A stretch of 64,000 nt of DNA from Candidatus Latescibacterota bacterium (lineage in GTDB: Bacteria; Krumholzibacteriota; Krumholzibacteriia; Krumholzibacteriales; Krumholzibacteriaceae): the NCBI GenBank assembly GCA_019038625.1, contig JAHOYU010000078.1, positions 1,687-65,686 of the forward strand. The letters are read 5' to 3'. The notes below the pieces were generated by a model. The model had not been told where the DNA came from, made no database searches, and saw nothing but the letters and a program-made list of their open reading frames with translations. The stretch's first letter is position 1. Every line of letters starts with the position of its first letter. Shown one piece after another: positions 1,205 to 36,517 of the stretch. The position numbers were made by a program, and so were the translations under genes.

Positions 1205-1654
1205 ATGCAGGAGATCATGGAAAATCAGGAACTGGATCAATTTAAACCAAAAATAGTCGGATTTCTGTGCAACTGGTGCACATACGCGGCAGCTGATCTC
1301 GCGGGTTCGTCGAAGATGGAGATCGATCCGGCACTCACCGTAATCAGGGTGATGTGTTCGAGCAGGGTCGACCATAATCTCGTTTTGACGACTTTTTTCA
1401 GCGGCGCAGACGGCGTGTTGATCGCAGGATGTCATCCGGGCGATTGCCACTATGGAGCTGGCAACTATTACGCGAGGCGCCGGTACGCTCTTCTGAAAAA
1501 AGTGATGGAGTCTCTTGGCCTCGAATCCGAAAGGCTGAAATTGTCATGGATCTCCGCCGCCGAGGGCAACCGCTACGCTGAAGTCGTAAACGGTTTTTCA
1601 GATAAGATCAGGCAATTGGGACCCAACCCGATCAATAAGATGTCAGGCTTATAG
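1205..1654 (+). CDS. mvhD: MvhD/FlxD-like protein (methyl-viologen-reducing hydrogenase delta subunit family), copy 1
   Basis: 'FLCNWCTYAAADLAG...VMCSSRVD...GCHPGDCHY' is the characteristic MvhD Cys pattern; ~149 aa. Confidence 0.8.
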   Translation: MQEIMENQELDQFKPKIVGFLCNWCTYAAADLAGSSKMEIDPALTVIRVMCSSRVDHNLVLTTFFSGADGVLIAGCHPGDCHYGAGNYYARRRYALLKKVMESLGLESERLKLSWISAAEGNRYAEVVNGFSDKIRQLGPNPINKMSGL

Positions 1655-1670
1655 TAAAGGTTAAGCAAAT

Positions 1671-2969
1671 ATGAGTCATTCAGAAAACGTTCTGATAATC
1701 GGAGCCGGCCTGGCCGGGATGACAGCGGCCCTTGAACTGGCACATGCCGGCAAGAAGGTCCACATTGTCGAACGGCTGCCCCTGATCGGGGGCAAGGTCA
1801 TCAAGGACGAGGAGAGTTTTCCCAATCTCGAATGTTCCACCTGTATGGTGGCGCCCGTGCAGCAGGACGTGCTGCAGAATCCTAATATCGTGACCATGAC
1901 TTTTAGTAATGTGGAAAAAATAGAGGGCGAAGCAGGTACTTTCCACGTCACAATAAAGAAGAACGCCCGTTATGTCAGTATGACCGATTGTATAGGGTGC
2001 GGGATGTGTTACGAGCCTTGTCCCGTAACGCAGAAGAACGAATGGGAAGAAAATCTCGGTGATATAAAAGCTATTTACGTTCCCTGCGCGGGTGCGCTTC
2101 CCAATGTGCCGGTCATAGATGCTCAGATCTGCCTCAAGCTCACGGGGAAAGAAGAGTGCAGTGCCTGCGCCGATTCATGCATGTTCGGAGCGATAAAGCT
2201 TGATGATACAGATGAGATTGTGGAGCTTGACGTGGGAGCGATCGTCGTCGCGACCGGAGCCGGGAACTATGATGCCACTACCCTGCCTCAGCTCGGATAC
2301 GGAAAACTTCCCGGAGTATATACGCCTTTCGAATTTGAGAGGCTTTTCGCGTCGAACGGCCCGACCCTGGGAGAATTGACCCTCCGTGACTCTGAAAAGA
2401 ATCCTGAAAAAGTAGTCATCGTACATTGTGTCGGGCGCGAGGAAGTGGGCTATTGTTCCAGCGTCTGTTGCATGTATTCGATGAAATTTGCTCATTTCAT
2501 AAAAAAGAAACTGCCCGACGCGGAGATATTCAATATCTATTCAGATGTCTGCGTGCCAGACAAAAACTATCAGAAATTCTTTAGAAAAGTAGAGGGAGCC
2601 GATACGAAGATGATCTTTTCTCCCGCGATAGACAGCGTGAAAGTGTCGGGGAACGGTTCGGGAATGAAGGTTTCCTATAGCAGTGGAGACGGGTCCGATG
2701 AATCGCTGGACGCGGACATGGTGATATTGGCTACTGCTGTCGTACCCGATCCCGAAGCCGGGACGCTGGCGGAGATGGTGGGCCTCGAGCTGGATCAGCA
2801 TGGCTTTATGGCGGTGAAGGACGATGTCGCTGGTTCAGTTGAAACATCAAGAGAGGGCCTGTTCGTCGCCGGAACTGCGGAAGGACCAAAAGACGTTCAG
2901 ACGGCTGTCATCCAGGCGGAAGCAGTAGTCGGCAGAGTGATGTCATATCTTGGGAAGGTGACCGGATGA
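1671..2969 (+). CDS. hdrA: HdrA-like FAD/Fe-S oxidoreductase (QmoA-like, first-half module of a tandem HdrA)
   Basis: N-terminal GxGxxG FAD fold 'VLIIGAGLAGMTAALELA', inserted ferredoxin 'CIGCGMCYEPCP' / 'CSACADSCMFG', and the HdrA signature 'HCVGREE..YCSSVCCMYSMK'. Stop overlaps the next start (ATGA). Confidence 0.75.
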   Translation: MSHSENVLIIGAGLAGMTAALELAHAGKKVHIVERLPLIGGKVIKDEESFPNLECSTCMVAPVQQDVLQNPNIVTMTFSNVEKIEGEAGTFHVTIKKNARYVSMTDCIGCGMCYEPCPVTQKNEWEENLGDIKAIYVPCAGALPNVPVIDAQICLKLTGKEECSACADSCMFGAIKLDDTDEIVELDVGAIVVATGAGNYDATTLPQLGYGKLPGVYTPFEFERLFASNGPTLGELTLRDSEKNPEKVVIVHCVGREEVGYCSSVCCMYSMKFAHFIKKKLPDAEIFNIYSDVCVPDKNYQKFFRKVEGADTKMIFSPAIDSVKVSGNGSGMKVSYSSGDGSDESLDADMVILATAVVPDPEAGTLAEMVGLELDQHGFMAVKDDVAGSVETSREGLFVAGTAEGPKDVQTAVIQAEAVVGRVMSYLGKVTG

Positions 2970-4651
2970 AAGCAAAAGTCGGAGTATATGTATGTGAATG
3001 CGGCCCGAACATCTCCGAGAAGATAGATATCGACAGGATACTGGAGGCTCTGCCCGGACTCGAGGAGTACAGGGATATCGAGCTTGTCGTGAAGAGATTC
3101 GGCCTGCTCTGTTCAGGAGATGGAAAAACATTTCTTGAAGATGAGATTAACAATAATGGACTTACTCATCTTGTTCTGGGCGCCTGTTCGCCCCGCGACC
3201 ATGACAAGACCTTCATCGCGGTCTGCAAGAAGACCAGCCTCAATCCGTTCCTTTACAAGATAATCAATATCCGTGAGCACTGTGCGTGGATCATTCCGGA
3301 TAAGGACCAGGCTACTGATAAGGCGATCACATACATGAGGGCTGGTATCAACAGGGTGCTGTTTCAGTCGGCTCTCATGGAGAAGAAACTCGATATCAAT
3401 CCGGATGTCATCATAGTCGGCGGCGGGATAGCGGGGATCGAAGCATCTCTTTCTCTCGCGGCAAAAGATAGAATGGTCTATCTGGTCGAAAAGGATGACC
3501 ATCTCGGCGGTAAGGCTGTTTTGTTCGGCGGACTTCTTCCCAGGCAGGGTGGAGGATCAGCAAAGATCAGAGAAAAGATAGAGAGTGTGCTCGGCAATGA
3601 CAGGATAAAGGTATACCTCGAATCGGAACTTAAAAACGTTATCGGGTTCCTCGGCAATTTCGAAGTAATGGTAGCCGGTGGGGAAGGCGGAGAGGAAAGA
3701 GAGCTCAAGGTCGGAGCGATAATAGTCGCAACGGGCAGCGGGATGTCTGATCCATCCGCTCTCGATGGCCTGAAGTATTCGGAAGCAGATGAAGTCATCA
3801 CATCCATGGACGCAGAGCGGATGTTCGCGAAAGATGGGAAGATCTCGTTGAAATCGGGTGGGGAACCAAAATCGGTTGCCCTGATCCACTGCGTAGGCAG
3901 AGAGGAAAAGGGATACTGTTCGAGGATCTGTTGCAACTATATGATGAAGATCGCTGGCTATCTGAAGGATCAGTCGGCGGATATGAGGGTCATAGAGTTT
4001 CACCGGGGGCTCTGTCTGCCGGACAAGGCTGACCAGGGATTCCAGAAAGAGACCGAAGGACGCGGGGTTGAGTTCAAGAGAGTACGGGAATTGACAATAG
4101 CAGGAACAAAAGTCAACGCTGAAGGGATGGACGGCAAGTCCGAGGCCCTCGATTTCGACCTGGTCATCCTGGCTCCTGCTCTAGAACCGTCCGAGGGAAC
4201 GGAAGGTATGGCCGAGCTTCTGGGCGTTCCATTGAGCGAGTCGGGGTATTATCAGGAGATCCACCAGACTACCAACCCGGTCGCTACATCGATCGAGGGT
4301 GTATTTGTAGTTGGAGCAGCGCACAGCCCCAAGGGTATAACGGATTCGATGCTGTTCGCGCAGGCCTCGGCGGGAAAGATACTCAGTCAGCTGATTCCAG
4401 GAGGAAAGATCACACCCGAGATCAAGGTCTCCGAGATCCTCGAAGCGTATTGCACGGGATGTGGAAATTGTCTCGATGTCTGTGTTTACGGGGCGATTTA
4501 TTACGATGAGGGTAGAGGCATATCCGTTGTCAACGAAGCGGTGTGCAGAGGTTGCGGAAACTGTTTCGGAAGCTGCCCGTCGGGCGCGCTCCGCACGAAA
4601 CATTTTACCAATACCCAGCTATACGAAGAAATGAGAGAGGCTATACGATGA
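2966..4651 (+). CDS. hdrA: HdrA-like FAD/Fe-S oxidoreductase (second-half module with HdrA N-terminal-like domain and C-terminal 2x[4Fe-4S])
   Basis: 'VGVYVCECGPNI...EHCAW' domain, second FAD site 'VIIVGGGIAGIEASLSLA', 'HCVGREEKGYCSRICCNYMMK', and C-terminal 'CTGCGNCLDVCVYG...CRGCGNCFGSCP'. With the previous gene it equals the 1019-aa fused protein at 7406. Confidence 0.7.
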   Translation: MKAKVGVYVCECGPNISEKIDIDRILEALPGLEEYRDIELVVKRFGLLCSGDGKTFLEDEINNNGLTHLVLGACSPRDHDKTFIAVCKKTSLNPFLYKIINIREHCAWIIPDKDQATDKAITYMRAGINRVLFQSALMEKKLDINPDVIIVGGGIAGIEASLSLAAKDRMVYLVEKDDHLGGKAVLFGGLLPRQGGGSAKIREKIESVLGNDRIKVYLESELKNVIGFLGNFEVMVAGGEGGEERELKVGAIIVATGSGMSDPSALDGLKYSEADEVITSMDAERMFAKDGKISLKSGGEPKSVALIHCVGREEKGYCSRICCNYMMKIAGYLKDQSADMRVIEFHRGLCLPDKADQGFQKETEGRGVEFKRVRELTIAGTKVNAEGMDGKSEALDFDLVILAPALEPSEGTEGMAELLGVPLSESGYYQEIHQTTNPVATSIEGVFVVGAAHSPKGITDSMLFAQASAGKILSQLIPGGKITPEIKVSEILEAYCTGCGNCLDVCVYGAIYYDEGRGISVVNEAVCRGCGNCFGSCPSGALRTKHFTNTQLYEEMREAIR

Positions 4652-5811
4652 ACGATTCTGCAGCACTGGGAGCGAAGACGAAGGCGGCTGACGGTCCGGG
4701 AGAGGCGATAAGAGCTTTTCTCAGGATGGCGGTGGAAAAGAAGGTCGCCGACGCGGTTCTTGTCCCGGTAAAAGTCCCGGCAGGGAATTCTTACGCATGG
4801 ATACTGGCGACAGACATGTCGATCCTTGATGAGGCCTCGCCGATAGCGCCCGTAATGCCGGTCCAGGGAGCGAAAGCTCTGAAGAGCCTGACAAGGAAAG
4901 GGCACGGCGAGCTGACTGTGATGGCCGTGATGAGGCCCTGCGAGATACGGGGGACGTTTGAGCTCCTCAAGCTCAATCAGGTGAACCTCGAGAAAGTGAT
5001 CCTGGTCAGTTACGATTGCCCGGGCGCCATTCCTTTCCGCGATTATGTGAAAGATCCGGGGGTTGGCGAAAAGAATTTTCAGGCAGTCATGTCGGCAGGT
5101 ACGCCCGCAGAGGAAAATGTCAAACCGGCCTGTATCATCTGCGACGAGTTTTCACAGGTAGACTCCGACATTCATTTCGGATGGTTCGGAGAGTCTGAAG
5201 ATTCGGTTATCGTCCTTCCGTTCAGTAATAAGGGTGGGGAAGTACTGGAATCAATGGGGATGGAATGTTCCGATGATATTTCCGACTGGAAGAAGACGGT
5301 CGCGGGGCTGAAGGAAAAGAAGACAGGGACACGGACCACTACTCTCGCCGAAACAGGCAAAAAGGTTCAGGGGCTGGATGGTCTCATGGGCACGTTCAGT
5401 GAATGTATCGGATGTCACAATTGCATGGCCGTATGTCCCATCTGTTATTGCAGACAATGTTATTTTGATTCGGAAGTCGCAAAGAAGACTTCCGATTTTA
5501 TTCTTGAGACCGCAAAAAAACGTGGTGGATTCGCATTTCCGTCTGACAGAGTGATGTTCCATACGGGCAGGATGACTCACATGAGTCTCTCCTGCGTATC
5601 CTGCGGAATGTGCACCGACGCATGCCCGGTCGATATACCTGTCGCGGAAATTTTCAGTTACATGGCCGACATCACGCAGCCGGCGTTCGAATATACTGCC
5701 GGCCGCAACGACGGAGTTCCCCTGCCACTGAGAAAATATGAGGAGAAAGAAGTGCCCCAGGTACACGAGATAGTGAAAGAAGCCGAGGGAGAGGAGGCTG
5801 CTCATGAGTAG
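4648..5811 (+). CDS. AsrA/HydB/FlxB-FlxC-family Fe-S protein (sulfhydrogenase-beta-like), copy 1
   Basis: 'CIGCHNCMAVCPICYCRQCYFD' followed by '...RVMFHTGRMTHMSLSCVSCGMCTDACP' is the AsrA-type cluster pattern. Start re-assigned to the ATG at 4648, which overlaps the upstream stop. Confidence 0.55.
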   Translation: MNDSAALGAKTKAADGPGEAIRAFLRMAVEKKVADAVLVPVKVPAGNSYAWILATDMSILDEASPIAPVMPVQGAKALKSLTRKGHGELTVMAVMRPCEIRGTFELLKLNQVNLEKVILVSYDCPGAIPFRDYVKDPGVGEKNFQAVMSAGTPAEENVKPACIICDEFSQVDSDIHFGWFGESEDSVIVLPFSNKGGEVLESMGMECSDDISDWKKTVAGLKEKKTGTRTTTLAETGKKVQGLDGLMGTFSECIGCHNCMAVCPICYCRQCYFDSEVAKKTSDFILETAKKRGGFAFPSDRVMFHTGRMTHMSLSCVSCGMCTDACPVDIPVAEIFSYMADITQPAFEYTAGRNDGVPLPLRKYEEKEVPQVHEIVKEAEGEEAAHE

Positions 5812-6901
5812 GATAGATGTACAGAAAGCTTCCTCTAAAGGATTGAAAGAGCTAATCGCCTATCTGCTCGAGAGCGGGAGAGTCTCAGCTGTATTTTCCT
5901 TGAGAAAGGATTCGAAAACCGGCTCTTATGACCTCGGCCTGATCACTGAAGAGGCCGGGATGGAAACAGCGGAACCGCTGGCGCCGGTCATGATAGCGAA
6001 CGCGGGACAGGTTCTTTCCTCCTTCGCTCCACCGGCAGAACCGATAGCCGTGGTCCTGAAGCCATGCGAACTCAGAGCCTTTATCGAAAGAGCAAAGAGG
6101 GAGCAGGGCAGCCTGGAGAATATCCTGACAATATCCATGACCTGCGGTGGAGTCCTGACGCGGGACAGGGTCGTCAGCGGATTCGACAGTGACAAGGTCG
6201 GCGATTATGAAAATCATTGTTTTGCTGGAGATATACATCCCGAGACTCGTGATACCTGCAAGGCATGTGAATATTTTGTTCCCATGAATGCCGACATAAC
6301 CGTTTCTATGGCAGGCCAGGAAGATGCCGGGACCAGGTGCCATATATATCTGAACACCGATCTGGCCAGGGAAATGGCGAAGGGGTTCGGCCCGGACCCT
6401 GCCGAAGAAGATTTCGATAGCTCGATTACCGAGGGGCTGGCATCAAAAAGGGCGGCTGAAAAAGAGAGGCTTTACGGCGCGGTGATGTCGGGCAAGGGTG
6501 GGCTGGATGCCGTTATCGATACGTTCGGAAAATGTCTGGGATGTCACGGTTGCAGCAGGGTCTGTCCGATATGTTATTGCATGATCTGTGATTTCGAATC
6601 GAGAAATTTCGATAACGACATGCCGTATTTCGAAAAAGAACTGGAGCAGAAAGGGGCGCTGAGGCTTCCTCCGGATACGATGTTCTTTCATATAGGCAGG
6701 ATGATCCACATGAGTTTTTCATGTGTAGGTTGCGGCCAGTGTTCCGATGTCTGTCCGGCTGATATCCCGGTGGCGTCAGTGTTCAAGAAGGTCGGCGAAC
6801 AGACCGCGGCGATATTCGAATATGTGCCCGGCAGGGACATCGAGGAATCGATACCTGTGATGGTGTTCAAGGAAGAAGAGTTTACAGAATTTATTGACTG
6901 A
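5804..6901 (+). CDS. AsrA/HydB/FlxB-FlxC-family Fe-S protein, copy 2
   Basis: 'CLGCHGCSRVCPICYCMICDFE ... FFHIGRMIHMSFSCVGCGQCSDVCP'; paralogous to the previous gene; ATGAGTAG overlap with the upstream stop. Confidence 0.55.
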   Translation: MSRIDVQKASSKGLKELIAYLLESGRVSAVFSLRKDSKTGSYDLGLITEEAGMETAEPLAPVMIANAGQVLSSFAPPAEPIAVVLKPCELRAFIERAKREQGSLENILTISMTCGGVLTRDRVVSGFDSDKVGDYENHCFAGDIHPETRDTCKACEYFVPMNADITVSMAGQEDAGTRCHIYLNTDLAREMAKGFGPDPAEEDFDSSITEGLASKRAAEKERLYGAVMSGKGGLDAVIDTFGKCLGCHGCSRVCPICYCMICDFESRNFDNDMPYFEKELEQKGALRLPPDTMFFHIGRMIHMSFSCVGCGQCSDVCPADIPVASVFKKVGEQTAAIFEYVPGRDIEESIPVMVFKEEEFTEFID

Positions 6902-6938: not shown

Positions 6939-7364
6939 ATGGAAAAGAAATTCGTACCAAGAATAACGAGTTTTCTCTGCACATGGTGTTCGTATACCGG
7001 TGCGGATCTGGCCGGAACGGGGAGGATGCAGTACCCGACAGCGATCATACCGATCAAGGTGATGTGCTCAAGCCGCGTGGATCCTGTTTTTATCCTCAAG
7101 GCGTATCTGAAAGGTTCCGACGGAGTGTTTCTCGGTGGCTGCCATCCAGGCGATTGTCATTACGAAGTGGGAAACTACCATACACGCAGAAGATTCGCGA
7201 TTGTGAAAAAGGTATTTGAATTGCTCGGCCTGGAATCGGAAAGGCTCCGGCTGTCATGGATATCGGCCTCTGAAGGCCCGAAGTTTGCCAGGGTGGCGAA
7301 CGAATTCACAGAAAAGATCATTGAGATGGGTGAGAACGAAGCAAAGAAAAAGATATTTCTATAG
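6939..7364 (+). CDS. mvhD: MvhD/FlxD-like protein, copy 2
   Basis: 'FLCTWCSYTGADLAG...VMCSSRVDP...GGCHPGDCHY'. Confidence 0.8.
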   Translation: MEKKFVPRITSFLCTWCSYTGADLAGTGRMQYPTAIIPIKVMCSSRVDPVFILKAYLKGSDGVFLGGCHPGDCHYEVGNYHTRRRFAIVKKVFELLGLESERLRLSWISASEGPKFARVANEFTEKIIEMGENEAKKKIFL

Positions 7365-29233: not shown

Positions 29234-31111
29234 ATGAATGATCTTCTGTATATTATTATCGTTGCGGCAGTAGCTGGCATTATTCCTCTCCTGGTCCCAA
29301 GGAAGGGCAGCATCGTCGCCGGGATAACAAGCCTGATAGCAGCCGTCTGGATCTTTATCCGTTCGATGCAGCTTTTCAACGCCGGTGAGATCGCATGGAG
29401 TGTCCCTCTGTTCAACCTTGGAGGAGAGATACCGTTCGAGTTCGCGCTGAGGCTGACAGGGTTCAGTTCATTCGTCCTGTTGTTTATCAGCCTCTTCGGA
29501 GTGCTTATCATCCTGTATTCTCTCGGGTATATGAGAGGCAAGGGTCAGGCTTCGATCTATTATTCGTATCTTATGTGGACCCTTGCTGCCGCGGCAGGAG
29601 TGGTCATGGCAGACAACCTGCTTATTCTTCTCGTATTCTGGGAGATTCTGACGGCGATCCTTTTCTTCCTGATAAACATGGGTGGAGAAGGACACGAGAA
29701 GGCTGCGGCGAAGACTTTCACGATACTTGGATTCACCGATGCTACGATGCTTCTCGGAATCATACTCATATGGACGACCTTCGGAACGATATCGATCTCC
29801 GAACTGGCGGCGAATCCGATAGTACCTTCGTCCCCGGTCACAATAATCGCTTTCATATGTCTGTTTATCGGCGCTATCGCCAAGGCCGGCGGGATGCCTT
29901 TTCACAGCTGGATACCTGCTATCGCCAAGCCGACCCACGCTTCGGTCATCGCCTTCCTTCCAGCATCGCTTGACAAGCTTCTTGGCATATATCTGCTGGG
30001 ATTGCTGACTCTGAGGATATTTGCCATCGAACCAGGCGGGCCTCTTTCGATGATGATGATGATAGTCGGCGCGGTTACGATAGTCTTTGCCGTTCTGATG
30101 GCACTCATTCAGAAAAACGTCAAAAAACTTCTTTCCTTTAACGCCATCAGCCAGGTTGGATACATGGTGCTCGGAGTAGGAAGCGGAATCCCCGTCGCCA
30201 TCGCGGGTGGACTCTTTCATATGGTCAACCACGCGATATACAAGAGCGGACTCTTTCTCGGTGCCGGTGCTGTGGAGAAAATGACTGGAACGACTGAGCT
30301 CGAAGATCTCGGAGGACTGGCGAGGTTGATGCCAGTGACGTTCATTACGATGTTAATAGCGGGACTCACTATGTCTGGCGTTCCGCCATTCAGCGGGTTC
30401 GTTTCCAAATGGCTCCTTTACCAGGGGATGCTCGAAGGAAAATACATGATTTTCCTCATAGTGGCGATCTTCGGCAGCGCCCTGACGATGGCTTCGTTCA
30501 TAGGAGTTTTCCACGCTATCTTCCTCGGCCGCAGGCCCGAGAAATTCGATAATGTTCGTGAAGTCGACTTCTCCATGCAGCTTCCGATGATTTTCATAGC
30601 AATTCTCTGTATCGGGTTTGGAATATTCGCCAGCTATCCGCTGCAGAATTTCATTCTTCCTGTAGTAAGCGATGCGAGCGGGATCTCGATGTCCGGTTTT
30701 GAAGTGATCACTGAGAACACGAATGGATTCTGGAGCCCGACGAGCGCTACGATCCTTATGGTGGTAGGGCTGGTAGTAGGACTGATAATCTTTGCCTTCG
30801 GACGCATCAAAAAGAACCTGAGATATGACGATAATACGTGGACAGGGGGAAACATCCTCGAGAATGAAGAGATAAGGATCCCCGGCACACATTTCTATAA
30901 AACAGTGACAGATGAACTGAACCCGGTTGCGACCGGAGCATTCAACGATGGAGAGAAAGGCGCCTATGATCTGTACAATATCTTTGGCCGCCTTGGAGAT
31001 CTCGTTGTTCAGTTCCTGAGGTCCATGCATGACGGGATCCTGTCCACCTATCTTTCGTGGGCCGTGATAGGTCTCGGTGTACTTGCATTCATACTAATGT
31101 TCCGTTGGTAA
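29234..31111 (+). CDS. MrpA/NuoL-like cation/proton antiporter-type membrane subunit (MbhH-like, long form)
   Basis: 625 aa, ~16+ TM helices, NuoL/M/N-family conserved region ('SQVGYMVLGVGSG...HMVNHAIYKSGLFLGAG'). Confidence 0.75.
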   Translation: MNDLLYIIIVAAVAGIIPLLVPRKGSIVAGITSLIAAVWIFIRSMQLFNAGEIAWSVPLFNLGGEIPFEFALRLTGFSSFVLLFISLFGVLIILYSLGYMRGKGQASIYYSYLMWTLAAAAGVVMADNLLILLVFWEILTAILFFLINMGGEGHEKAAAKTFTILGFTDATMLLGIILIWTTFGTISISELAANPIVPSSPVTIIAFICLFIGAIAKAGGMPFHSWIPAIAKPTHASVIAFLPASLDKLLGIYLLGLLTLRIFAIEPGGPLSMMMMIVGAVTIVFAVLMALIQKNVKKLLSFNAISQVGYMVLGVGSGIPVAIAGGLFHMVNHAIYKSGLFLGAGAVEKMTGTTELEDLGGLARLMPVTFITMLIAGLTMSGVPPFSGFVSKWLLYQGMLEGKYMIFLIVAIFGSALTMASFIGVFHAIFLGRRPEKFDNVREVDFSMQLPMIFIAILCIGFGIFASYPLQNFILPVVSDASGISMSGFEVITENTNGFWSPTSATILMVVGLVVGLIIFAFGRIKKNLRYDDNTWTGGNILENEEIRIPGTHFYKTVTDELNPVATGAFNDGEKGAYDLYNIFGRLGDLVVQFLRSMHDGILSTYLSWAVIGLGVLAFILMFRW

Positions 31112-31136: not shown

Positions 31137-31733
31137 ATGGAGATTTTTCTCCTCGTATTGACGATATTCATGATTGTTGGATCGATCGTGGCGATAGAAT
31201 CAAAGAACCTTCTTTCGTCGGTGATCTCTGTCGGTATAGTCGGCTTCAGTCTCGGGATCATTTTTCTTATGCTGGGGGCTCCCGATATTGCGATCACACA
31301 GGTCGTAGTAGAGATACTGATACTCGTTATCCTGATCAGAGCGACGATCACAACTGACAATACTGCTATCGAAAAGCACAAGGACACCTTTCCTGTCGTT
31401 GTCAGCCTGATCTTTTTCGGGCTGTTCCTGATCTTCGCCTATTTTGCGGTTCAGGAACTTCCGCAGTTCGGAGATCCTCTTCCCAGAGAAGCGGCAGCTC
31501 ACTATCTCGAAAATGGCGCAGAAGAGACGGGCGCTATGAATATTGTTACAGCCGTGCTTCTCGATTACAGGGCCTATGATACCATGGGGGAAGCGACCGT
31601 ACTTTTTGCTTCTATCGTAGGTTCATTTGTCATCCTGAGAAGACGCGGGAGAAAACATCGGAAGGAAGAAGATACTGAAAAGGTCGGGATCCTCGAAGAT
31701 GAGGATATCAAAAAGAACTTCGAGGGATTCTAG
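31137..31733 (+). CDS. MrpB-N-terminal-like (MbhD/MbhE-like) membrane subunit
   Basis: Small hydrophobic protein at the MrpB position of Mrp-Mbh operons; weak family assignment. Confidence 0.45.
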   Translation: MEIFLLVLTIFMIVGSIVAIESKNLLSSVISVGIVGFSLGIIFLMLGAPDIAITQVVVEILILVILIRATITTDNTAIEKHKDTFPVVVSLIFFGLFLIFAYFAVQELPQFGDPLPREAAAHYLENGAEETGAMNIVTAVLLDYRAYDTMGEATVLFASIVGSFVILRRRGRKHRKEEDTEKVGILEDEDIKKNFEGF

Positions 31734-31743
31734 AGGGAGCGCT

Positions 31744-32244
31744 ATGGATAAGATGGATAAATACATAAAGGACAGCAAGAGCGGGATGACTCCTATAGTC
31801 AAGACGGTAGTGCGTTTTGTCATGGGTATCATCTTTATCTTCGGCGCCTATGTCGTTCTTTACGGCCATCTCACCCCGGGCGGAGGCTTCGCTGGCGGAG
31901 TGATACTTGCCTGTGGATTCATAATCCTTACTCTCGCTTTCGGTAAGGGGCTCGGACTTTCGAAGCTGAGCGATACCTGGGCGTCCATTCTTGATAATTC
32001 CGCTGCCCTGTTATTTCTCACGATCGGTTTTATAGGTTTTTCCGGGGGTTACTTTTTTACGAACGTACTTGGAAAGGGCAAGGAGTTTGCTCTTTTCAGC
32101 GCGGGAACCATACCCCTTTGCAATATAGCTATCGGATTGAAGGTCACAGCGTCCGTATTCGCGGTATTTCTTACGCTTTCGATCTTCGGACGGTTTATTT
32201 CAAAACTTGTTGATGATTATGAAGATGATACTGAAAAGGAGTAA
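31744..32244 (+). CDS. MnhB-domain membrane subunit (MrpB C-terminal-like, MbhF-like)
   Basis: 'GHLTPGGGFAGG' matches the MnhB signature GHxxPGGGFxGG. Start moved to the ATG at 31744 behind RBS 'AGGGAG'. Confidence 0.6.
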   Translation: MDKMDKYIKDSKSGMTPIVKTVVRFVMGIIFIFGAYVVLYGHLTPGGGFAGGVILACGFIILTLAFGKGLGLSKLSDTWASILDNSAALLFLTIGFIGFSGGYFFTNVLGKGKEFALFSAGTIPLCNIAIGLKVTASVFAVFLTLSIFGRFISKLVDDYEDDTEKE

Positions 32245-32250: not shown

Positions 32251-32601
32251 ATGATCCTGTACTTTCTGACGCTGGTGCTTTTCGTGATGGGACTTTACTG
32301 TCTCGTGGCGAAAAAGAATATCATAAAGAAGATCATCGGGATCGTCATCACCGAGTATTCCATCAACCTTTTCCTGGTGCTTGTCGGCTGGCGTAAAGGC
32401 GGGATAGCTCCGATCCTTCTTAAGGGTATGCAGAAGAGTGAGATCGTGGAGAAAGGCGTAGATCCATTACCCCAGGCGCTGGTACTGACTTCGATCGTGA
32501 TCGGGCTCGGTGTACTGGCTCTGATGGTGTCGATCTGCCTGAGACTTTACGAAAAATACAAGACATTCGATATGTCCGAGATTAACAGGCTTCGAGGATA
32601 G
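32251..32601 (+). CDS. MrpC/NuoK-like membrane subunit (MbhG-like)
   Basis: 116 aa, three TM helices, NuoK/MnhC-like. Confidence 0.55.
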   Translation: MILYFLTLVLFVMGLYCLVAKKNIIKKIIGIVITEYSINLFLVLVGWRKGGIAPILLKGMQKSEIVEKGVDPLPQALVLTSIVIGLGVLALMVSICLRLYEKYKTFDMSEINRLRG

Positions 32602-32620: not shown

Positions 32621-34120
32621 ATGCAGGCATATTTTCCATTATTTACAGCGATTCCACTGGCCATGGCCTTCATCAATCTGCTGGTCACAAAGGTCAACAA
32701 GAAGGTAACTGATTTTCTTGCATTCCTGGCGATGATCAGCCTGGCCTCAATGGCTATCATGATGCTTTTCGAGTCTCCTTTCTCTTATCAGTTGGGCGGG
32801 TGGGCGCCACCCATCGGTATCCTGCTGGTATCGGATGGCCTCAGCTCGGTGATGCTGGTCATCATCAATGTTATTGGCCTGCTGTCCATGATCTACTCGA
32901 TGAAGTACATGACCACATATACGGCCAAGCCGAAGTTCTACACACTGTTCCTTCTGATGATCGCAGGGATGAACGGCGTAGTCATAACTGGAGACATGTT
33001 CAACTTGTATGTCTTCCTTGAGATCGCGTCGATCGCCTCGTACGCTCTCGTAGGATTTGGCTGCGAGAAAAATGAACTCGAGGCCTCGTTCAAGTACCTG
33101 ATCCTGGGTGGAGTGGCCAGCACGGTTGTACTCTTTGGAATAGCCTTCCTCTATTCGATGACTGGAACTCTCAACATGCCGGATCTCGCGGTCAAGATTC
33201 CAGAGATCGGACACAACCACGCGATGGGATTCGTAATGGCTCTGTTCATCATGGGATTCGGGCTCAAGGCGTCGTCTGTTCCGTTCCATGCCTGGTTGCC
33301 AGACGCGCATCCGAGCGCGCCAGCTCCCATATCCGCCATGCTCTCAGGCGTACTTATCAAGGCTCTTGGCATCTATTCGATCGCAAGGATCATGTTCAAC
33401 ATATTCGGTTCAGACACTATGGTCTCTTCGATACTCATGTTCCTGGGAGCGCTTTCGATGCTTGTCGGCGTCTTCCTCGCTGTCGGACAGCATGATTTTA
33501 AAAGAATGCTGGCGTATCACTCGATAAGCCAGATGGGATATGTGATGATGGGGCTCGGTCTTGGTCTCAATCCGAACGTACCCCCGGCGCTCGCGGCGCT
33601 GGCGTTATTCGGCGGGCTCTTTCATATGGTCAACCACGCTGTTTTCAAGTCCTGCCTCTTTCTCTGTGCCGGTTCTTTCGAATACCGGACGGGGACGAAA
33701 GACAAAACAGAAATGGGTGGGCTTATCAGGCGTATGCCTTTCACATCTGCTACCTGCTCGATAGCCTCGTTATCGATTTCAGGTGTGCCGCCATTTAACG
33801 GATTCTGGAGCAAGCTGATCATCATCGTTGCGTTCATGAAAGCCGGATATACGATATATGGTATTCTGGCGATCCTGGTCGCCTTTATGACGATGATCTC
33901 TTTCATCAGATTACAAATGAATGTTATTTTCGGAAAGCTTCCGGAGAAGTTCGAGAAAATCAAAGAAGCTCCCTTCGCGATGGTACTACCATTGGTCATT
34001 CTGGCAATTCTGTGCCTTGCGCTAGGTATCTTCTATCCGTTGGTCGATCAGAACCTGATCGAAGCTGCGAAAGACGCGTTACTGGACAAGGCGCAATATA
34101 TAAGTTTTCTGGGCAGGTAA
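32621..34120 (+). CDS. MrpD/NuoM-like antiporter-type membrane subunit (second large antiporter subunit)
   Basis: 499 aa; 'SQMGYVMMGLGLG...HMVNHAVFKSCLFLCAGS' NuoL/M/N-family signature. Confidence 0.75.
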   Translation: MQAYFPLFTAIPLAMAFINLLVTKVNKKVTDFLAFLAMISLASMAIMMLFESPFSYQLGGWAPPIGILLVSDGLSSVMLVIINVIGLLSMIYSMKYMTTYTAKPKFYTLFLLMIAGMNGVVITGDMFNLYVFLEIASIASYALVGFGCEKNELEASFKYLILGGVASTVVLFGIAFLYSMTGTLNMPDLAVKIPEIGHNHAMGFVMALFIMGFGLKASSVPFHAWLPDAHPSAPAPISAMLSGVLIKALGIYSIARIMFNIFGSDTMVSSILMFLGALSMLVGVFLAVGQHDFKRMLAYHSISQMGYVMMGLGLGLNPNVPPALAALALFGGLFHMVNHAVFKSCLFLCAGSFEYRTGTKDKTEMGGLIRRMPFTSATCSIASLSISGVPPFNGFWSKLIIIVAFMKAGYTIYGILAILVAFMTMISFIRLQMNVIFGKLPEKFEKIKEAPFAMVLPLVILAILCLALGIFYPLVDQNLIEAAKDALLDKAQYISFLGR

Positions 34121-34137
34121 ATGAAAAAGGGTAATCG

Positions 34138-34623
34138 ATGAAACGATTCTTACATTTTCTGATTCTACTGGGCATCTGGATGCTTTTGACGTGGTCCGTC
34201 GCCTGGCAGGAAGTTCTGGTCGGTGTCGTTGTCGCGCTTATAGCGGAACTGCTGCTTGGAGATATCTTTCCAATAGGAGCGATCAAGCTCTTCAACCCGA
34301 TCAGGCTCTACTGGATGATAGTCTATGCTGTCGTATTTTTAGGTTATGTCATACGGGCGAACTTCGATGTTGCCTACCGGGTCCTGAATCTCTACATGCC
34401 GATCCGCCCCGGGATCGTCAAGGTCAAGATGAGGTTGAAGAGTGATATGGCGAGGACGTTCCTTGCGAATTCTATCACGCTGACACCCGGAACGCTGACG
34501 GTGGATTGTGTCGGTGAAAACCTGTACGTTCACTGGATAAACATTACTTCCGACGATCCGGAGAAGGAAACGGAGATCATCGTATCCCGTTTCGAAAATC
34601 TGTTAGAAAGGATATTTGAGTGA
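34138..34623 (+). CDS. MrpE/MnhE-like subunit (MbhA-like)
   Basis: ~161 aa with two N-terminal TM helices and a soluble tail, in the conserved Mrp order E-F-G. Confidence 0.5.
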   Translation: MKRFLHFLILLGIWMLLTWSVAWQEVLVGVVVALIAELLLGDIFPIGAIKLFNPIRLYWMIVYAVVFLGYVIRANFDVAYRVLNLYMPIRPGIVKVKMRLKSDMARTFLANSITLTPGTLTVDCVGENLYVHWINITSDDPEKETEIIVSRFENLLERIFE

Positions 34624-34874
34624 GTGTCTTTATCGCGCTGTTGATTCTCTGCATTTTCCTCTGCCTGTACAGGGTAGGGAAGGGGCCTACAGCACCCGAC
34701 AGGACGGTGGCGATTGATATTCTTGGAACCCTCGTAGTCGGTTTCTGCGCGATATACTCGATCATCACCAAGAAAGACCTGTATATGAATATCGGAATAT
34801 CCTGGGCTCTTCTGAGTTTCATCGGAACGCTTGCCCTGTCAAAATACCTTGAGGGGAGGGGTTTCGATGAATGA
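34620..34874 (+). CDS. MrpF/MnhF-like subunit (MbhB-like)
   Basis: 84 aa, three TM helices; overlaps the neighbouring genes by a few nt. Confidence 0.5.
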   Translation: MSVFIALLILCIFLCLYRVGKGPTAPDRTVAIDILGTLVVGFCAIYSIITKKDLYMNIGISWALLSFIGTLALSKYLEGRGFDE

Positions 34875-35211
34875 GACGATAGGCCTGATATTTCTTATCA
34901 TCGGTATCACTTTTGACGTAATCGGTTGTATCGGCCTGGTAAGGCTACCCGATGTATATAACCGCCTCCAGGCGGCCACTAAATGCGTCACTCTGGGAAC
35001 GAGCATGATATTACTGGCGGTAGTCTTTTATACCGGCATAAACTCGATCGGTGTAAAAGCCCTGCTCTGTATCTGGTTCGTCCTGATAACTTCTCCAACG
35101 GGAGCTCATGCCATAGCGAGAGCTGCTCACAAGTCAGGTGTCCGGTTATGGAAGGGCAGCGTAATGGATAAATATGCTGAGGACAATGAAGGTGCCGACA
35201 GCTCCTCCTGA
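34867..35211 (+). CDS. MrpG/MnhG-like subunit (MbhC-like)
   Basis: 'MNETIGLIFLIIGITFDVIGCIGLVRLPDVYNRLQAATK' is the typical MnhG N-terminus; ATGAATGA overlap with mrpF. Confidence 0.55.
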   Translation: MNETIGLIFLIIGITFDVIGCIGLVRLPDVYNRLQAATKCVTLGTSMILLAVVFYTGINSIGVKALLCIWFVLITSPTGAHAIARAAHKSGVRLWKGSVMDKYAEDNEGADSSS

Positions 35212-35250: not shown

Positions 35251-35877
35251 ATGCGTTATCCAAAACTGAGAGAACTCAAGGAAGCTATCACAGCCCTGAT
35301 CAAGGGGCCGTACACATCGAAGTTCCCCAAGGTACCCGCGACGGTTCCTGAACATTTCCGTGGTACACCGACCTATGTGCCTGACGAATGTGTCGGTTGC
35401 GGTTCGTGCGCCCAGGTATGCCCGGCCGGGGCCATAGAGATCGTTGATGAATACAGGGAAGATGAAGGGAAGATGGTACGCAGGATCGAGAGAAATTGGG
35501 GCAACTGCATATTCTGCAGCCAGTGCTATGAGTACTGCATCACAAACAAGGGAATCGAGCTCGACCCTGATTTCGAGAAATCATGCTTTGATATGGCTGA
35601 TGCGATCAACACGCATGACAAGGAACTGCTCTTCTGCGAGCATTGCAGTACCCCTATCACGGCAAAAGACCATATTAAGTGGATCGGCAAAAAGCTTGGA
35701 GAGCTTTCGTTCGCGAACCCGACCCTTACAGTATACAAATATGGAGAATTAAAATTGGTGGAAGAGGGAACCGGGGACAATCCTCGGAAAAATCTCGAAA
35801 GAGATAATTTCATCAGGGTCCTCTGCCCGAACTGCCGTGCCGCTTATATCCTTTCGGATGAGTGGGGGACAAGCTGA
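35251..35877 (+). CDS. NuoI/MbhN/EchF-like 2x[4Fe-4S] ferredoxin subunit
   Basis: 'CVGCGSCAQVCPAGAI' and 'CIFCSQCYEYC'. The ORF track begins at a TTG (35239); the first ATG is 35251. Confidence 0.7.
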   Translation: MRYPKLRELKEAITALIKGPYTSKFPKVPATVPEHFRGTPTYVPDECVGCGSCAQVCPAGAIEIVDEYREDEGKMVRRIERNWGNCIFCSQCYEYCITNKGIELDPDFEKSCFDMADAINTHDKELLFCEHCSTPITAKDHIKWIGKKLGELSFANPTLTVYKYGELKLVEEGTGDNPRKNLERDNFIRVLCPNCRAAYILSDEWGTS

Positions 35878-35900
35878 CCCGGATGGGATCTTGCGAATTC

Positions 35901-35931
35901 AGGCCTCCCTCTTCGGGGGCCTTTTTTTTTG
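35901..35931 (+). terminator. Rho-independent terminator after the Mbh membrane module
   Basis: Hairpin AGGCCTCCC-tcttc-GGGGGCCT followed by T9. Confidence 0.5.
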
Positions 35932-36028
35932 ATCTTGTAAATGAGAGGGAATGGCACTTCATTAATCAGGACGGCAGGTGATGAGAGTTCCCTGCCAGGG
36001 GAATCGTACCCGGGAGGTGCTTGGATAT

Positions 36029-36517
36029 ATGGAGAAGTTGAGGGAAAAATTGCTGGCACGCCTTGAAGGCAAGCGTTTCGGCGTAGTCGGTATAGGCAAT
36101 GTGATCAAGGGAGATGATGGCGCCGGCTGTGTAGTCGTAGAGGGTCTTCAGGGGAAGATAGACCTCCCGATCGTCGATTGCGCCGAGGTCCCTGAAAATT
36201 ACGGGGGATGGGTAGAGAGGCAGGATCTTGACAGTGCTATATACATCGATGCTGTTGATTTCGGAGGAGAACCGGGGGAAGTGAGGATAATTCCTCTGGA
36301 AAAGATGATGGTGACAGCGAGCAGTACGCATACCCTGTCTCTGCATTATATGATCATCTATCTGAGAGATGAGTGGAAGGGCGATCCGATCATGATCGGG
36401 ATCCAGCCGAAAGAGATGAGGATCGGAGACGGGCTCAGTGATGAGGTGAGCGCCGGGGTGAAGAAATTGACCGATATTCTGATCGAGGCAGCTCTGACTG
36501 ACAAGCAGGATAGATAA
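36029..36517 (+). CDS. hycI: [NiFe]-hydrogenase maturation endopeptidase (HycI/HybD family)
   Basis: 'FGVVGIGNVIKGDDGAGCVVVEGL' N-terminal motif of hydrogenase maturation proteases; start placed at 'MEKLREKL'. Confidence 0.7.
   Translation: MEKLREKLLARLEGKRFGVVGIGNVIKGDDGAGCVVVEGLQGKIDLPIVDCAEVPENYGGWVERQDLDSAIYIDAVDFGGEPGEVRIIPLEKMMVTASSTHTLSLHYMIIYLRDEWKGDPIMIGIQPKEMRIGDGLSDEVSAGVKKLTDILIEAALTDKQDR

Follow-up and report, generated by a model that had tools for sequence, protein, structure and literature searches.

Does a long, unbroken run of redox genes encode one enzyme or several? The question is raised by a contig of Candidatus Latescibacterota bacterium (GenBank assembly GCA_019038625.1, contig JAHOYU010000078.1), of which we analyzed a stretch of 64,000 nucleotides, hereafter the window. 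Between positions 1205 and 36517 of the window, genes for HdrA-type flavoproteins, a NuoE/F/G-like trio, and a [NiFe]-hydrogenase with Mrp-type antiporter subunits follow one another on the same strand, and a first-pass annotation had read them as a single complex-I-like enzyme. Our comparative analysis leads us to consider it quite probable that the block comprises 2 separately conserved anaerobic redox units rather than one super-enzyme: cluster A (1205-21490), which probably also includes the rhodanese and DsrE genes at 7-863, and operon B (21802-36517). The 2 units are known kinds of system in new variants, and both are biochemically unexplored.

According to the open reading frame (ORF) list and Pfam, the block contains 34 ORFs, all on the plus strand (g01 to g34; Table 1). 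Gaps between genes range from -109 to +54 nt, the exceptions being the gaps before g17 (278 nt, or 311 nt if measured to the better start) and before hycI (100 nt); better start codons at 4648 (g04), 18218 (g16), and 21802 (g17) are likely the true ones. The Pfam inventory includes 3 MvhD/FlpD proteins (g01, g06, and g08); the HdrA-type proteins g02 and g03, the double HdrA g07 (1019 residues), and the HdrA parts of g14 and g16; Fe-S proteins g04, g05, and g09; Fer4_22 proteins g10 and g17; FAD/NAD-binding [2Fe-2S] proteins g11 and g18; the HdrC-like g12; the FrhB-family g13; and NuoE-, NuoF-, and NuoG(N)-like parts in g14, g15, and g16, respectively. These are followed by the molybdopterin-family g19, the HycB-like g20, NuoH/B/C/D-like g21-g24, MrpA-MrpG-like g25-g32, the NuoI-like g33, and HycI (g34). 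At this level, the first-pass annotation was right about the co-directional block and its families, the 3 MvhD copies and 6 HdrA modules (by Pfam, with the motif described below in all 6), the NuoE-like and NuoG-like domains physically joined to HdrA modules in g14 and g16, the intact [NiFe] site, the complete Mrp-type membrane module, and the HycI protease. Its count of 5 AsrA/FlxB-like proteins holds for g10 (11856-12890) and g17 (21802-22854), which carry Fer4_22, and fails for g04, g05, and g09 (10882-11850), which are FdhB-like Fe-S proteins. None of the NCBIfam models reached its cut-off for any of 10 ambiguous proteins.

The evidence for 2 units comes from where each of them recurs. Close homologues of g19 (50-92% identity) are labeled mostly Krumholzibacteria, with one Latescibacteria, and 3 loci with 52-68% g19 identity (L082, L083, and L084) share the order g17-g18-g19-g20-NuoH-B-C-D-MrpA-MbhDE-MnhB-MrpC-MrpD-E-F-G-NuoI, upstream of which lie thioredoxin/AhpC-like, nadA, and nifU genes and no Hdr or Bfu genes. 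The same operon with one extra antiporter-like gene was found via the large subunit (61%) in L086, and a variant consisting of beta/gamma-HycB-Mbh-Mrp-NuoI-HycI, without the Fdh-like gene, in a Verrucomicrobiota metagenome-assembled genome (MAG; L085, 64% in the large subunit), with hypA, a cobW-family (HypB-like) gene, and hypF located 3' of HycI (same position as in the window). A metagenome scan yielded 29 more loci with an invariant operon-B order, which, together with L082-L084 and L086, bring the loci with the Fdh-like gene to 33 beyond the window. Upstream sequence of 1.6-8 kb before g17 is available in 13 of the 29, and none of it matches g01-g16, so that Hdr or Bfu genes precede operon B in 0 of 17 informative loci (these 13, L082-L084, and L086). 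The subunit set of operon B is the same with or without a neighboring cluster A, and the window holds no extra docking subunit.

Cluster A, in turn, recurs without the hydrogenase. The adjacency of A and B was found in the window and 2 other assemblies, at 92-97% protein identity, and is restricted to the window's own lineage. These independent assemblies (GCA_030629965.1 contig DAOVNZ010000019.1 and ERZ23498622 scaffold_85) both repeat the order g12-g33, one of them from g07 onward. At 84% identity (L090), the g16 homologue is followed by thiolase and acyl-CoA dehydrogenase genes and no Mbh; at 75% (L089) and 73% (L002), g07-g16 are arranged as in the window and are followed by an opposite-strand DsrE-family gene and unrelated genes, likewise with no Mbh. 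We also scanned one genome per species for the full-length g16-type fusion and found it in Desulfobacteraceae, Planctomycetota, Acidobacteriota, Spirochaetes, Altiarchaeales, and Chitinispirillaceae, with HdrA(N)::NuoE and NuoF genes upstream in all of these loci and usually HdrC before and MvhD after. Of the trio loci from other lineages, 16 extend 1 kb or more downstream; none of these has adjacent Mbh or Mrp genes, and one has a short NiFe large-subunit fragment. The earlier assignment of g14-g16 as the N-module of the Mbh-Mrp hydrogenase is thus contradicted by neighborhood searches that find the trio widespread without Mbh and the cluster ending after g16 at 73-84% identity. By these comparisons, A and B appear to be neighbors only in the window's Krumholzibacteria lineage, as the result of a recent rearrangement.

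The spacer between the 2 units is consistent with such a boundary. An A-rich tract followed by TTGACA (21675-21680) is kept ahead of the g17 homologue in the window, L001, and L082-L084, including loci without upstream Hdr genes, and a perfect 6+4+6 palindrome, ACAGACTGCCGTCTGT, present at 21698-21713 in the window and also in L001, may be an operator. Judging from this conservation, the spacer is a probable promoter/operator region of the hydrogenase operon. A scan for the sigma-70 consensus over 20.5-23 kb returned no plus-strand promoter or terminator, and the operon boundary therefore rests on the comparative evidence and the TTGACA motif.

Several observations weigh against this division. 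The 34 genes share one direction and are closely spaced, and 3 assemblies of the lineage preserve the adjacency. The hairpin after the g16 stop is no better than shuffled sequence (z = -1.55), and, as there is no convincing terminator at this point, read-through and co-expression are possible. Cluster A has 3 MvhD and several FdhB-like adaptors with no hydrogenase or Fdh of its own. In a Phycisphaerae MAG (L007, 1197-15533), HdrC, HdrB (CCG), the trio, and MvhD are followed by a hydrogenase small-subunit gene, probably of the Mvh type; given this gene and the orphan adaptors, a hydrogenase partner for cluster A is plausible in principle. Finally, the substrates of both units are deduced from homology and neighborhood only.

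Apart from the last, these points favor the reading of the first-pass annotation, in which all ~34 products would form one complex-I-like super-enzyme with a NuoEFG::HdrA N-module, an Mbh Q-module, and an Mrp P-module, coupling the bifurcation or confurcation of NADH and ferredoxin (or sulfur) to H2 and ion translocation. It also gains from the predicted Mbh-Bfu enzymes of Dehalococcoides and from 2 Bathyarchaeia loci (L038, 1046-14768, and L053, 2823-21320), in which double-HdrA/MvhD/HdrC clusters lie within ~5 kb of Ech/Mbh-like group 4 hydrogenase genes with 42-43% identity to g24. However, the adjacency is limited to relatives at 92% identity or more, cluster A ending after g16 in those at 84%, 75%, and 73%; no Hdr or Bfu genes precede operon B in the 17 informative loci; the operon-B subunits are unchanged by the presence of cluster A, with no additional docking subunit; the promoter-like motif of the spacer is kept in loci without cluster A; and in Mbh-Bfu the Bfu genes lie inside the hydrogenase cluster, whereas here they are 4.5 kb upstream of g21, past 3 other input-module genes. 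With the trio conserved without Mbh and operon B conserved without Hdr or Bfu, we judge a single enzyme improbable, and the full complex-I-like architecture was not sustained.

Similarly slight is the probability we assign to a looser association, in which, in this lineage, an MvhD or FdhB-like adaptor would tether the Hdr/Flx/Bfu system to the arm that the FdhA-like protein and HycB form on the Mbh-Mrp hydrogenase. We retain it because of the shared strand, the missing clear terminator, the orphan adaptors, and the probable Mvh-type neighbor in distant relatives; if true, a membrane-bound ion-translocating hydrogenase would be driven by 2 serial bifurcation modules and replace the Mvh-/Fdh-type partners of other Hdr systems. 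As 2 units, A and B would share no more than soluble carriers (ferredoxin and NAD(P)H) and perhaps a common regulation. For genome scans in general, genes that run in the same direction over 35 kb say little in favor of a single complex if their adjacency is not conserved above the species level.

The trio g14-g16, which had been described as a complex-I N-module, proved to be a HydCBA/Bfu-type module inside a double HdrA. In g14, an FAD Rossmann segment and Fer4 at residues 13-130 precede a 2Fe-2S_thioredx domain (Pfam 1.5e-48, residues 150-292), and residues 13-126 are 56% identical to residues 7-120 of g07. The N-terminal residues 8-183 of g16 match the small BfuA 9MQX_A (2.7e-33) and the remainder matches HdrA 5ODC_A (1.5e-173), with residues 169-1078 being 45% identical to residues 107-1001 of g07. 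On the strength of these alignments with g07, g14 and g16 together correspond to a g07-like double HdrA into which BfuC-BfuB-BfuA have been inserted near residue 110-120. Full-length matches of g15 are to NiFe-HydB 7T2R_B (793 bits) and, within a range of 650-793 bits, HydB, NfnB, and StnB, compared with at most 387 bits, over the core only, for complex-I Nqo1/NuoF. The architecture of g15 is that of the Bfu family, with a [2Fe-2S] Trx-like domain, an FMN/NAD(H) core, and C-terminal 2x[4Fe-4S], and the C-terminus of g14 provides BfuC. A complex-I N-module was rejected on the domains and full-length matches of g15, which are of the HydB/BfuB type, and on the N-terminus of g16, in which reading of the sequence revealed no HxxxCxxC motif, that is, no His-ligated NuoG cluster.

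Cluster A thus holds 3 sets of MvhD plus double HdrA, the split and interrupted copies being counted by their alignments. The g16 family is large, its members being annotated only as 'FAD-dependent oxidoreductase' or 'HdrA' in genomes labeled Krumholzibacteriota, Fermentibacteria, KSB1, Cloacimonetes, Zixibacteria, WOR-3, and Thermoplasmata. A second kind of insertion was observed in Delongbacteria (L005, 9110-13567), where a protein of 1485 residues with the arrangement HdrA(N)::GltD-like(Fer4_20 + Pyr_redox_2)::double HdrA is encoded directly after the g13 homologue; this GltD-module form is also common in Marinimicrobia and Cloacimonadota. Around residue 110-140, a double HdrA can therefore carry either a GltD-like NAD(P)H module within one polypeptide or BfuC-BfuB-BfuA in 3 genes (15434-21490 in the window), and the inserted-ferredoxin region of HdrA seems to be a hot spot for gaining pyridine-nucleotide input modules. 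In L007, NuoF carries a fused GltD-like domain, and the trio is interspersed with CBS/HATPase and PHP regulatory-type genes. The G+C content of the window falls to 0.47-0.49 at 14001-18000 (g13-g15, encoding the FrhB-like protein, HdrA(N)::NuoE, and NuoF) from 0.51-0.53 on either side, which would fit an inserted Bfu module of separate origin.

The molybdopterin-family protein g19 had been taken for a split-off NuoG C-terminus, an assignment we abandoned, as NuoG ranks below Fdh and Nap in both sequence and fold. The NCBIfam scores are 130 bits for Fdh-alpha (cut-off 666) and 79 bits for NuoG, and the AlphaFold model of g19 (mean pLDDT 74; the first 77 residues are unreliable) is nearest to FdsA, FdhH, and Nap (E ~1e-24 to 1e-22, TMq 0.64-0.67), NuoG being further away (3e-17, TMq 0.53). 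Rather, g19 is an FdhF-like subunit of the hydrogenase arm and part of the hydrogenase operon, preceding HycB as in formate hydrogenlyase (FHL). It keeps the 4 FS0 cysteines (C8, C11, C15, and C51), and the FdhA segment 'ARICHGPS', with the catalytic CH, aligns with 'APDDTPLF' in g19; the 4 cysteines and A135-P136-D137-D138 are invariant in 13 members of the g19 family, down to 51% identity. A canonical formate dehydrogenase is very unlikely. By analogy with NuoG, the Asp-Asp pair could mark a cofactor-less scaffold; against a loss of catalysis, it could equally provide a metal ligand by analogy with NarG, which has an Asp-ligated metal site.

Two features would nevertheless support operon B as a formate hydrogenlyase of the Thermococcus Fdh-Mfh-Mnh or E. 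coli FHL kind, in which formate oxidized by g19 would supply electrons to the [NiFe] site via HycB while Mrp translocates ions: the MopB-HycB-hydrogenase gene order mirrors FdhF-HycB of FHL, and formate dehydrogenases, among them E. coli FdhH and the FHL structure 7Z0T, give the best matches to g19 in both sequence and fold. Yet the catalytic Cys/Sec-His pair is replaced by the invariant D137-D138 in 13 of 13 aligned members, the scores lie far below family cut-offs (Fdh-alpha 130 bits against 666), the related operon of L085 dispenses with the g19 gene while keeping the beta/gamma pair and HycB, and Matheus Carnevali et al. did not manage to assign the protein to the formate dehydrogenases. 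With the Cys/Sec-His pair missing from g19, we reject formate hydrogenlyase as very improbable. As for the proposed break at 15400 or 21500, there is next to no chance that the block is a chimeric mis-assembly uniting unrelated contigs near 15.4 kb or 21.5 kb, despite the slight G+C dip at 14-18 kb and the long AT-rich spacer at 21.5 kb: the idea is refuted, as far as sequence comparison goes, because 2 independent assemblies cross both junctions in the same order, and, in addition, the g13-g14 junction is kept in L002, L089, and L005 and base composition and GC skew are unbroken over the whole region.

Table 1. Features of the gene block and its upstream neighbors (window coordinates; a dot denotes no strand).
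Feature	Assignment	Position	Strand	Support
	Rhodanese-like protein, upstream neighbor of cluster A	7..480	+	Pfam Rhodanese 2.6e-15
	DsrE/DsrF-like sulfur-carrier-family protein	504..863	+	Pfam DrsE_2 1.1e-10, DsrE 1.8e-9
g01	MvhD/FlpD adaptor, copy 1	1205..1654	+	Pfam FlpD 4.3e-51; 54-57% identity to g06, g08
g02	HdrA-like flavoprotein, first half of split double HdrA	1671..2969	+	Pfam Pyr_redox_2, FAD-binding families
g03	HdrA-like flavoprotein, second half of split double HdrA	2966..4651	+	Pfam; N-domain, TrxR-like core, C-terminal ferredoxin domain
g04	FdhB-like Fe-S protein	4648..5811	+	Pfam Fer4_8, weak FrhB_FdhB_C; HdrC-type dicluster; 29% identity to g05
g05	FdhB-like Fe-S protein	5804..6901	+	Pfam FrhB_FdhB_C 1.1e-7
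g06	MvhD/FlpD adaptor, copy 2	6939..7364	+	Pfam FlpD 1.5e-49
g07	Fused double HdrA, BamE-like architecture	7406..10465	+	Two TrxR-like modules
g08	MvhD/FlpD adaptor, copy 3, FlxD-like position	10466..10885	+	Pfam FlpD 2.1e-55
g09	FdhB-like Fe-S protein, FlxC-like position	10882..11850	+	Pfam Fer4 families; 24% identity to g05
g10	Sulfhydrogenase-beta/AsrA/FlxB-like Fe-S subunit	11856..12890	+	Pfam Fer4_22 1e-33
g11	Sulfhydrogenase-gamma/AsrB/FlxA-like FAD/NAD(P)-binding protein, [2Fe-2S] motif	12901..13734	+	Pfam NAD_binding_1, DHODB_Fe-S_bind; NCBIfam
g12	HdrC-like dicluster protein, 156 residues	13750..14220	+	NCBIfam CoB_CoM_SS_C 1.4e-27, under cut-off
g13	FrhB/FpoF-family flavo-Fe-S protein, N-terminal 2x[4Fe-4S] domain	14273..15397	+	Pfam FrhB_FdhB_N, FrhB_FdhB_C
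g14	Chimera: first ~130 residues of double HdrA + BfuC/HydC/NuoE-like [2Fe-2S] domain	15434..16312	+	
g15	BfuB/HydB-type NADH/FMN subunit	16362..18215	+	Pfam; N-terminal [2Fe-2S], C-terminal 2x[4Fe-4S] domains
g16	Chimera: small BfuA/BamI-like N-terminus ([2Fe-2S] + 2x[4Fe-4S]) + remainder of double HdrA	18218..21490	+	
Spacer	Largest intergenic spacer, 311 nt	21491..21801	.	Conserved motif, palindrome
g17	Sulfhydrogenase-beta/AsrA-like Fe-S subunit, first gene of operon B	21802..22854	+	Pfam Fer4_22 3.8e-29
g18	Sulfhydrogenase-gamma/AsrB-like FAD/NAD(P)H subunit	22868..23686	+	Pfam; NCBIfam AsrB 9.4e-58, under cut-off
g19	FdhA/FdhH-like molybdopterin-family protein	23741..25531	+	Best solved relative FdhA 7BKB_D, 2.7e-22
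g20	HycB/CooF-like poly-ferredoxin, 16 Cys	25534..26013	+	Pfam Fer4_11 6.3e-21
g21	NuoH/MbhM-like membrane subunit	26026..26958	+	Pfam NADHdh 5.9e-66
g22	NuoB/MbhJ-like hydrogenase small subunit	26974..27387	+	Pfam Oxidored_q6 2.8e-28
g23	NuoC/MbhK-like subunit	27428..27949	+	Pfam Complex1_30kDa 5.2e-18
g24	Group 4 [NiFe]-hydrogenase large subunit, MbhL-like	27994..29199	+	L1, L2 motifs intact
g25	MrpA/NuoL-like antiporter subunit	29234..31111	+	Pfam Proton_antipo_M 6.9e-49
g26	MbhD/MbhE-like subunit, NuoJ-like	31137..31733	+	Pfam MbhD, MbhE
g27	MnhB-like subunit	31699..32244	+	Pfam MnhB 1.7e-22
g28	MrpC/NuoK-like subunit	32251..32601	+	Pfam Oxidored_q2 8.6e-26
g29	MrpD/NuoM/N-like antiporter subunit	32621..34120	+	Pfam Proton_antipo_M 2.1e-66; 37% identity to g25
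g30	MrpE	34138..34623	+	Pfam MNHE 1.8e-41
g31	MrpF	34620..34874	+	Pfam MrpF_PhaF 1.9e-17
g32	MrpG	34867..35211	+	Pfam PhaG_MnhG_YufB 9.7e-27; start set by 114-residue relatives in L082, L083
g33	NuoI/MbhN-like 2x[4Fe-4S] subunit	35251..35877	+	Pfam Fer4_7, Fer4
g34	HycI-type maturation endopeptidase	35978..36517	+	Pfam HycI 1e-11

Among the genes upstream of the trio, g02 aligns with residues 3-428 of g07 at 32% and carries the YCSxxCCxxxxK motif, and g03, which has a CxCGxNI motif in its N-domain, aligns with residues 451-1003 at 33%; by these alignments, g02 and g03 are one double HdrA split in two. The reading frames of g03 and g04 meet in an ATGA start/stop overlap. The fused double HdrA g07 matches HdrA 5ODC_A in 3 stretches (8e-198). 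The motif CVGSR..YCSxxCCxxxxK is kept in all 6 TrxR-like (HdrA) modules, and in module 1 of g07 its lysine aligns with K409 of Methanothermococcus HdrA, which we take to contact N5 of the FAD. The equivalent lysine of BamE (Lys280) was described as a hallmark of the bifurcating flavin in a 2026 cryo-EM preprint on class II benzoyl-CoA reductase. The proteins g04, g05, and g09 form a separate family with mutual identities of 21-29% and are not AsrA-like; among solved structures, g05 is most similar to FdhB from the Fdh-Hdr complexes of methanogens (9T1S_M, 9e-32; 8RVU_E; 7BKB_E), and g13 to 8RJA_E (3e-46). For g10, NCBIfam returned ShyB (1.2e-48), HydB, and AsrA, all under their cut-offs. No scanned ORF of the window matched the CCG domain of HdrB (PF02754) or the AOR family, nor did the remainder of the 64 kb yield a catalytic partner for cluster A in the form of an AOR, HdrB, Mvh, or Fdh; as HdrB is missing, so is the disulfide-reducing site that defines HdrABC.

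A sulfur compound had been mentioned in passing as a possible substrate, and this aside receives some support from conserved neighbors. In the Delongbacteria locus L075, a DsrE homologue (57% identity; 2922-3278) lies directly upstream of the g01 homologue, g01-g12 follow in window order (44-81%), and after ~4.8 kb come a rhodanese (41%; 21807-22277) and g13. Between g12 and g13 in L005 (2905-7867), also from Delongbacteria, are genes for a YeeE/YedE-type 'sulphur transport' protein, 3 rhodanese-domain proteins, and a porin-like protein. Homologues of the window rhodanese (7-480) with 41-43% identity sit within both of these syntenic clusters. The weak part of the argument is the recurrence of DsrE in L089: the window's DsrE-like protein has little similarity to that of L089 (32% over 53 residues), and the synteny in Delongbacteria is the stronger link to sulfur.

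In operon B, g17 is the first gene in every conserved locus and matches SHI beta 9NEZ_B (4.2e-41), and g18 carries a GGGVGLAP loop and a Cx4CxxCx7C [2Fe-2S] motif. The large subunit g24 has the motifs RICGICSCSH and DPCYSCTER and a C-terminal extension of ~37 residues of the kind removed by HycI-type proteases; its solved relatives are MbhL (6CFW_L, 4.7e-92, 312 bits), HycE (7Z0S_E, 1e-74, 255 bits), and Nqo4 (6e-60). Both CxxC Ni-Fe ligand motifs and the combination of NuoB/C/H/I-like and Mrp subunits in one operon place it in the Mbh-Mrp type, and the position of g33 after MrpG is kept in all relatives. The true start of g27 is probably a few codons later, relatives having 161-166 residues, and that of g34 is possibly M18 at 36029. 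A group 3b sulfhydrogenase was considered for the beta/gamma-like pairs g17/g18 and g10/g11 and rejected, the window containing no group 3 alpha or delta subunit. An exact-sequence look-up returned no record for the window's large subunit or for protein P0003. One protein 100% identical to the large subunit (27994-29199; P0241) is labeled 'Bacteroidales bacterium'; all other close relatives of g16, g19, and g24 are labeled Krumholzibacteria, and the taxonomic label of the source MAG looks doubtful. In L085 (1-17919), a second [NiFe]-hydrogenase (small and large subunits plus HycI) precedes the operon-B variant.

Cluster A would be a cytoplasmic multi-flavin electron-bifurcating/confurcating system assembled from 3 MvhD plus double-HdrA units, 4 FdhB/FrhB-like Fe-S adaptors, a FlxAB-like NAD(P)H module, and HdrC, the third double HdrA having received a HydBC/Bfu-type NADH and ferredoxin module by gene-level insertion, which yielded the HdrA(N)::NuoE-like and NuoG(N)-like::HdrA chimeras. 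By analogy with BamDEFGHI, NADH and reduced ferredoxin would enter and be confurcated at BfuBC, and NAD(P)H would enter at the FlxAB-like pair; the BfuA clusters and MvhD would then carry electrons to the bifurcating FAD of a double HdrA. Speaking against NAD(P)H entry at the FlxAB-like pair, the nucleotide loop of g11 is an atypical GGGFAFTT where g18 has the usual GGGVGLAP, and the 2 beta/gamma-like pairs may therefore differ in nucleotide binding. The low-potential branch would exit through the HdrA ferredoxin domains, and the higher-potential branch would lead through HdrC and FdhB-like proteins to NAD(P)+ (FlxAB) or to a sulfane-sulfur carrier delivered by rhodanese/DsrE. Because rhodanese, DsrE, and, in relatives, YeeE-like genes are conserved, a protein-bound or imported sulfane-sulfur compound is our best guess for the terminal acceptor, although we regard a sulfur compound in this role as a rather doubtful proposition.

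Operon B would encode an Mbh-Mrp energy-converting group 4 [NiFe]-hydrogenase, the arm of which is extended by HycB, the FdhF-like g19, and the sulfhydrogenase beta/gamma-like pair. Electrons could pass from NAD(P)H to the FAD and [2Fe-2S] of g18, the clusters of g17, possibly FS0 of g19, and then HycB, NuoI, NuoB, and the [NiFe] site, with ferredoxin probably feeding HycB or NuoI, as in the membrane-bound hydrogenase (MBH); the Mrp module would couple the reaction to ion translocation in either direction. Reduction of protons by NAD(P)H is endergonic at standard conditions (-320 versus -414 mV), and Mrp would therefore either spend ion-motive force on evolving H2 or conserve energy when H2 is very low or is being taken up. 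Whether NAD(P)H is the physiological partner we consider a close call that falls just short of even. If it is, operon B would be an ion-coupled NAD(P)H:H+ oxidoreductase and give fermenters a way of shedding NAD(P)H as H2 other than through confurcating [FeFe]-hydrogenases.

Outside the block, the window contains genes for an IOR-type 2-oxoacid:ferredoxin oxidoreductase, thioredoxin, pyruvate kinase, citrate lyase, phosphoenolpyruvate carboxykinase (PEPCK), a sigma-54 activator, and peptidases. Converging on the end of operon B (36612-38995, minus strand) is an indolepyruvate/2-oxoacid:ferredoxin oxidoreductase-like pair (a POR gamma domain protein and a TPP/POR_N/Fer4 protein), which probably supplies reduced ferredoxin. 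The stretch 46495-56337 encodes pyruvate kinase, a set of citrate lyase proteins (fused ACP-CitE plus CitF), a PEPCK-like protein, and a sigma-54 activator with TPRs; genes for secreted-type peptidases (C1, M1, and M16) follow up to 63.2 kb. This context fits a fermentative, peptide-using anaerobe that disposes of reduced ferredoxin and NAD(P)H.

Among known systems, the FlxABCD-HdrABC complex of Desulfovibrio offers a counterpart for part of cluster A. In the terms of that system, g08-g11 correspond to FlxD (MvhD), FlxC/FlxB (Fe-S), and FlxA (FAD/NAD(P)H, [2Fe-2S]), in the vicinity of HdrA and HdrC; unlike it, cluster A has no HdrB, and its NADH module is of the Bfu type and split over 3 genes. 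The GltD-like NAD(P)H module in the double HdrA of relatives in Delongbacteria, Marinimicrobia, and Cloacimonadota recalls the large 'HdrL'-type HdrA fusions. Operon B resembles the P. furiosus MBH (6CFW) and E. coli FHL (7Z0S) in its NuoB/C/H/I-like subunits and in g24, which is nearest MbhL and then HycE; with FHL it also shares the C-terminal extension plus HycI of HycE and an FdhF-like protein followed by HycB. It differs from both in a gene order other than mbhA-N, 2 large antiporter-like subunits with a full MrpA-G set, an Fdh-like subunit without Cys/Sec-His, and an additional beta/gamma pair of the NAD(P)H type, as in soluble group 3b hydrogenases. Operon B thereby joins the NAD(P)H-binding pair of those soluble enzymes to a respiratory Mbh-Mrp hydrogenase.

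A closer match in gene content to 21802-36517 is found in 2 published descriptions, the comparison being one of described content and not of sequence. Matheus Carnevali (2019) reported in Saganbacteria an 'enigmatic' group 4 hydrogenase encoded together with Mrp subunits, cooF, asrA, asrB, and a molybdopterin oxidoreductase that defied classification; relatives of this region have been noted in Zixibacteria and Omnitrophica. Meheust (2020) reported in Elusimicrobia an 'Mbh-Mrp-oxidoreductase' type, function unknown. In contrast to these, operon B occurs in Krumholzibacteria and adjoins cluster A. In the literature searched, we found neither unit described in Krumholzibacteriota or Fermentibacteria and no account of a rhodanese/DsrE/HdrA/MvhD association, of HdrA(N)::BfuC or BfuA::HdrA chimeras, or of a sulfur-gene association; a key HdrA review was outside this coverage.

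The Bfu family was defined by Schut et al. (2022), who listed Bam-Bfu (BamGHI with the HdrA-type BamE) and the predicted membrane enzymes Mbh-Bfu (in Dehalococcoides) and Nuo-Bfu, with Bfu genes inside the membrane-complex cluster. Like the window, the latter combine a HydABC-like module with a membrane ion-translocating group 4 hydrogenase or complex I; unlike them, the Bfu genes of the window are fused to HdrA, belong to a different conserved unit, and are not conserved beside the hydrogenase. Membership of Mbh-Bfu was rejected, with g16 ending 4.5 kb before the first Mbh gene, a promoter-like spacer in between, and Bfu absent in 17 of 17 related loci. The first-pass annotation knew of no characterized complex in which NuoEFG::HdrA fusions are combined with an Mrp-Mbh hydrogenase, but besides the predicted Mbh-Bfu and Nuo-Bfu there is a characterized enzyme, class II benzoyl-CoA reductase, which joins NuoEFG-like and HdrA-like parts. 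According to the cryo-EM preprint, BamGH of this enzyme confurcates NADH and reduced ferredoxin, BamI and the MvhD-like BamF pass electrons to the fused double HdrA BamE, and only the first FAD of BamE bifurcates, toward BamD and BamBC.

Set against this published description, and in architecture only, the Bam[(BC)2DEFGHI]2 complex of Geobacter metallireducens corresponds to cluster A in that BamGH, the HydBC-type NADH/ferredoxin module, resembles the g14 C-terminus plus g15, BamI, a small NuoG-N-like subunit with three clusters, the g16 N-terminus, BamF an MvhD adaptor, and BamE both g07 and the sum of the g14 N-terminal and g16 C-terminal parts, with 2 bifurcation modules in series. Cluster A differs in having only a 156-residue HdrC in place of the AOR-type tungsten BamBC and the HdrBC-like BamD, short MvhD copies (139-149 residues), BamI- and BamG-like parts covalently fused to the double HdrA that they interrupt, 3 double-HdrA units with FlxAB-like and FdhB/FrhB-like proteins, and sulfur-trafficking rather than aromatic-degradation genes as neighbors. 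Without HdrB and with sulfur-carrier neighbors, it is a tractable case for learning what such systems reduce. The chimeric trio represents a widespread building plan, found in many bacterial and some archaeal phyla, and while a HydBC-type module feeding an HdrA-type module has been structurally resolved only in class II benzoyl-CoA reductase, cluster A shows this plan beyond aromatic-ring reduction.

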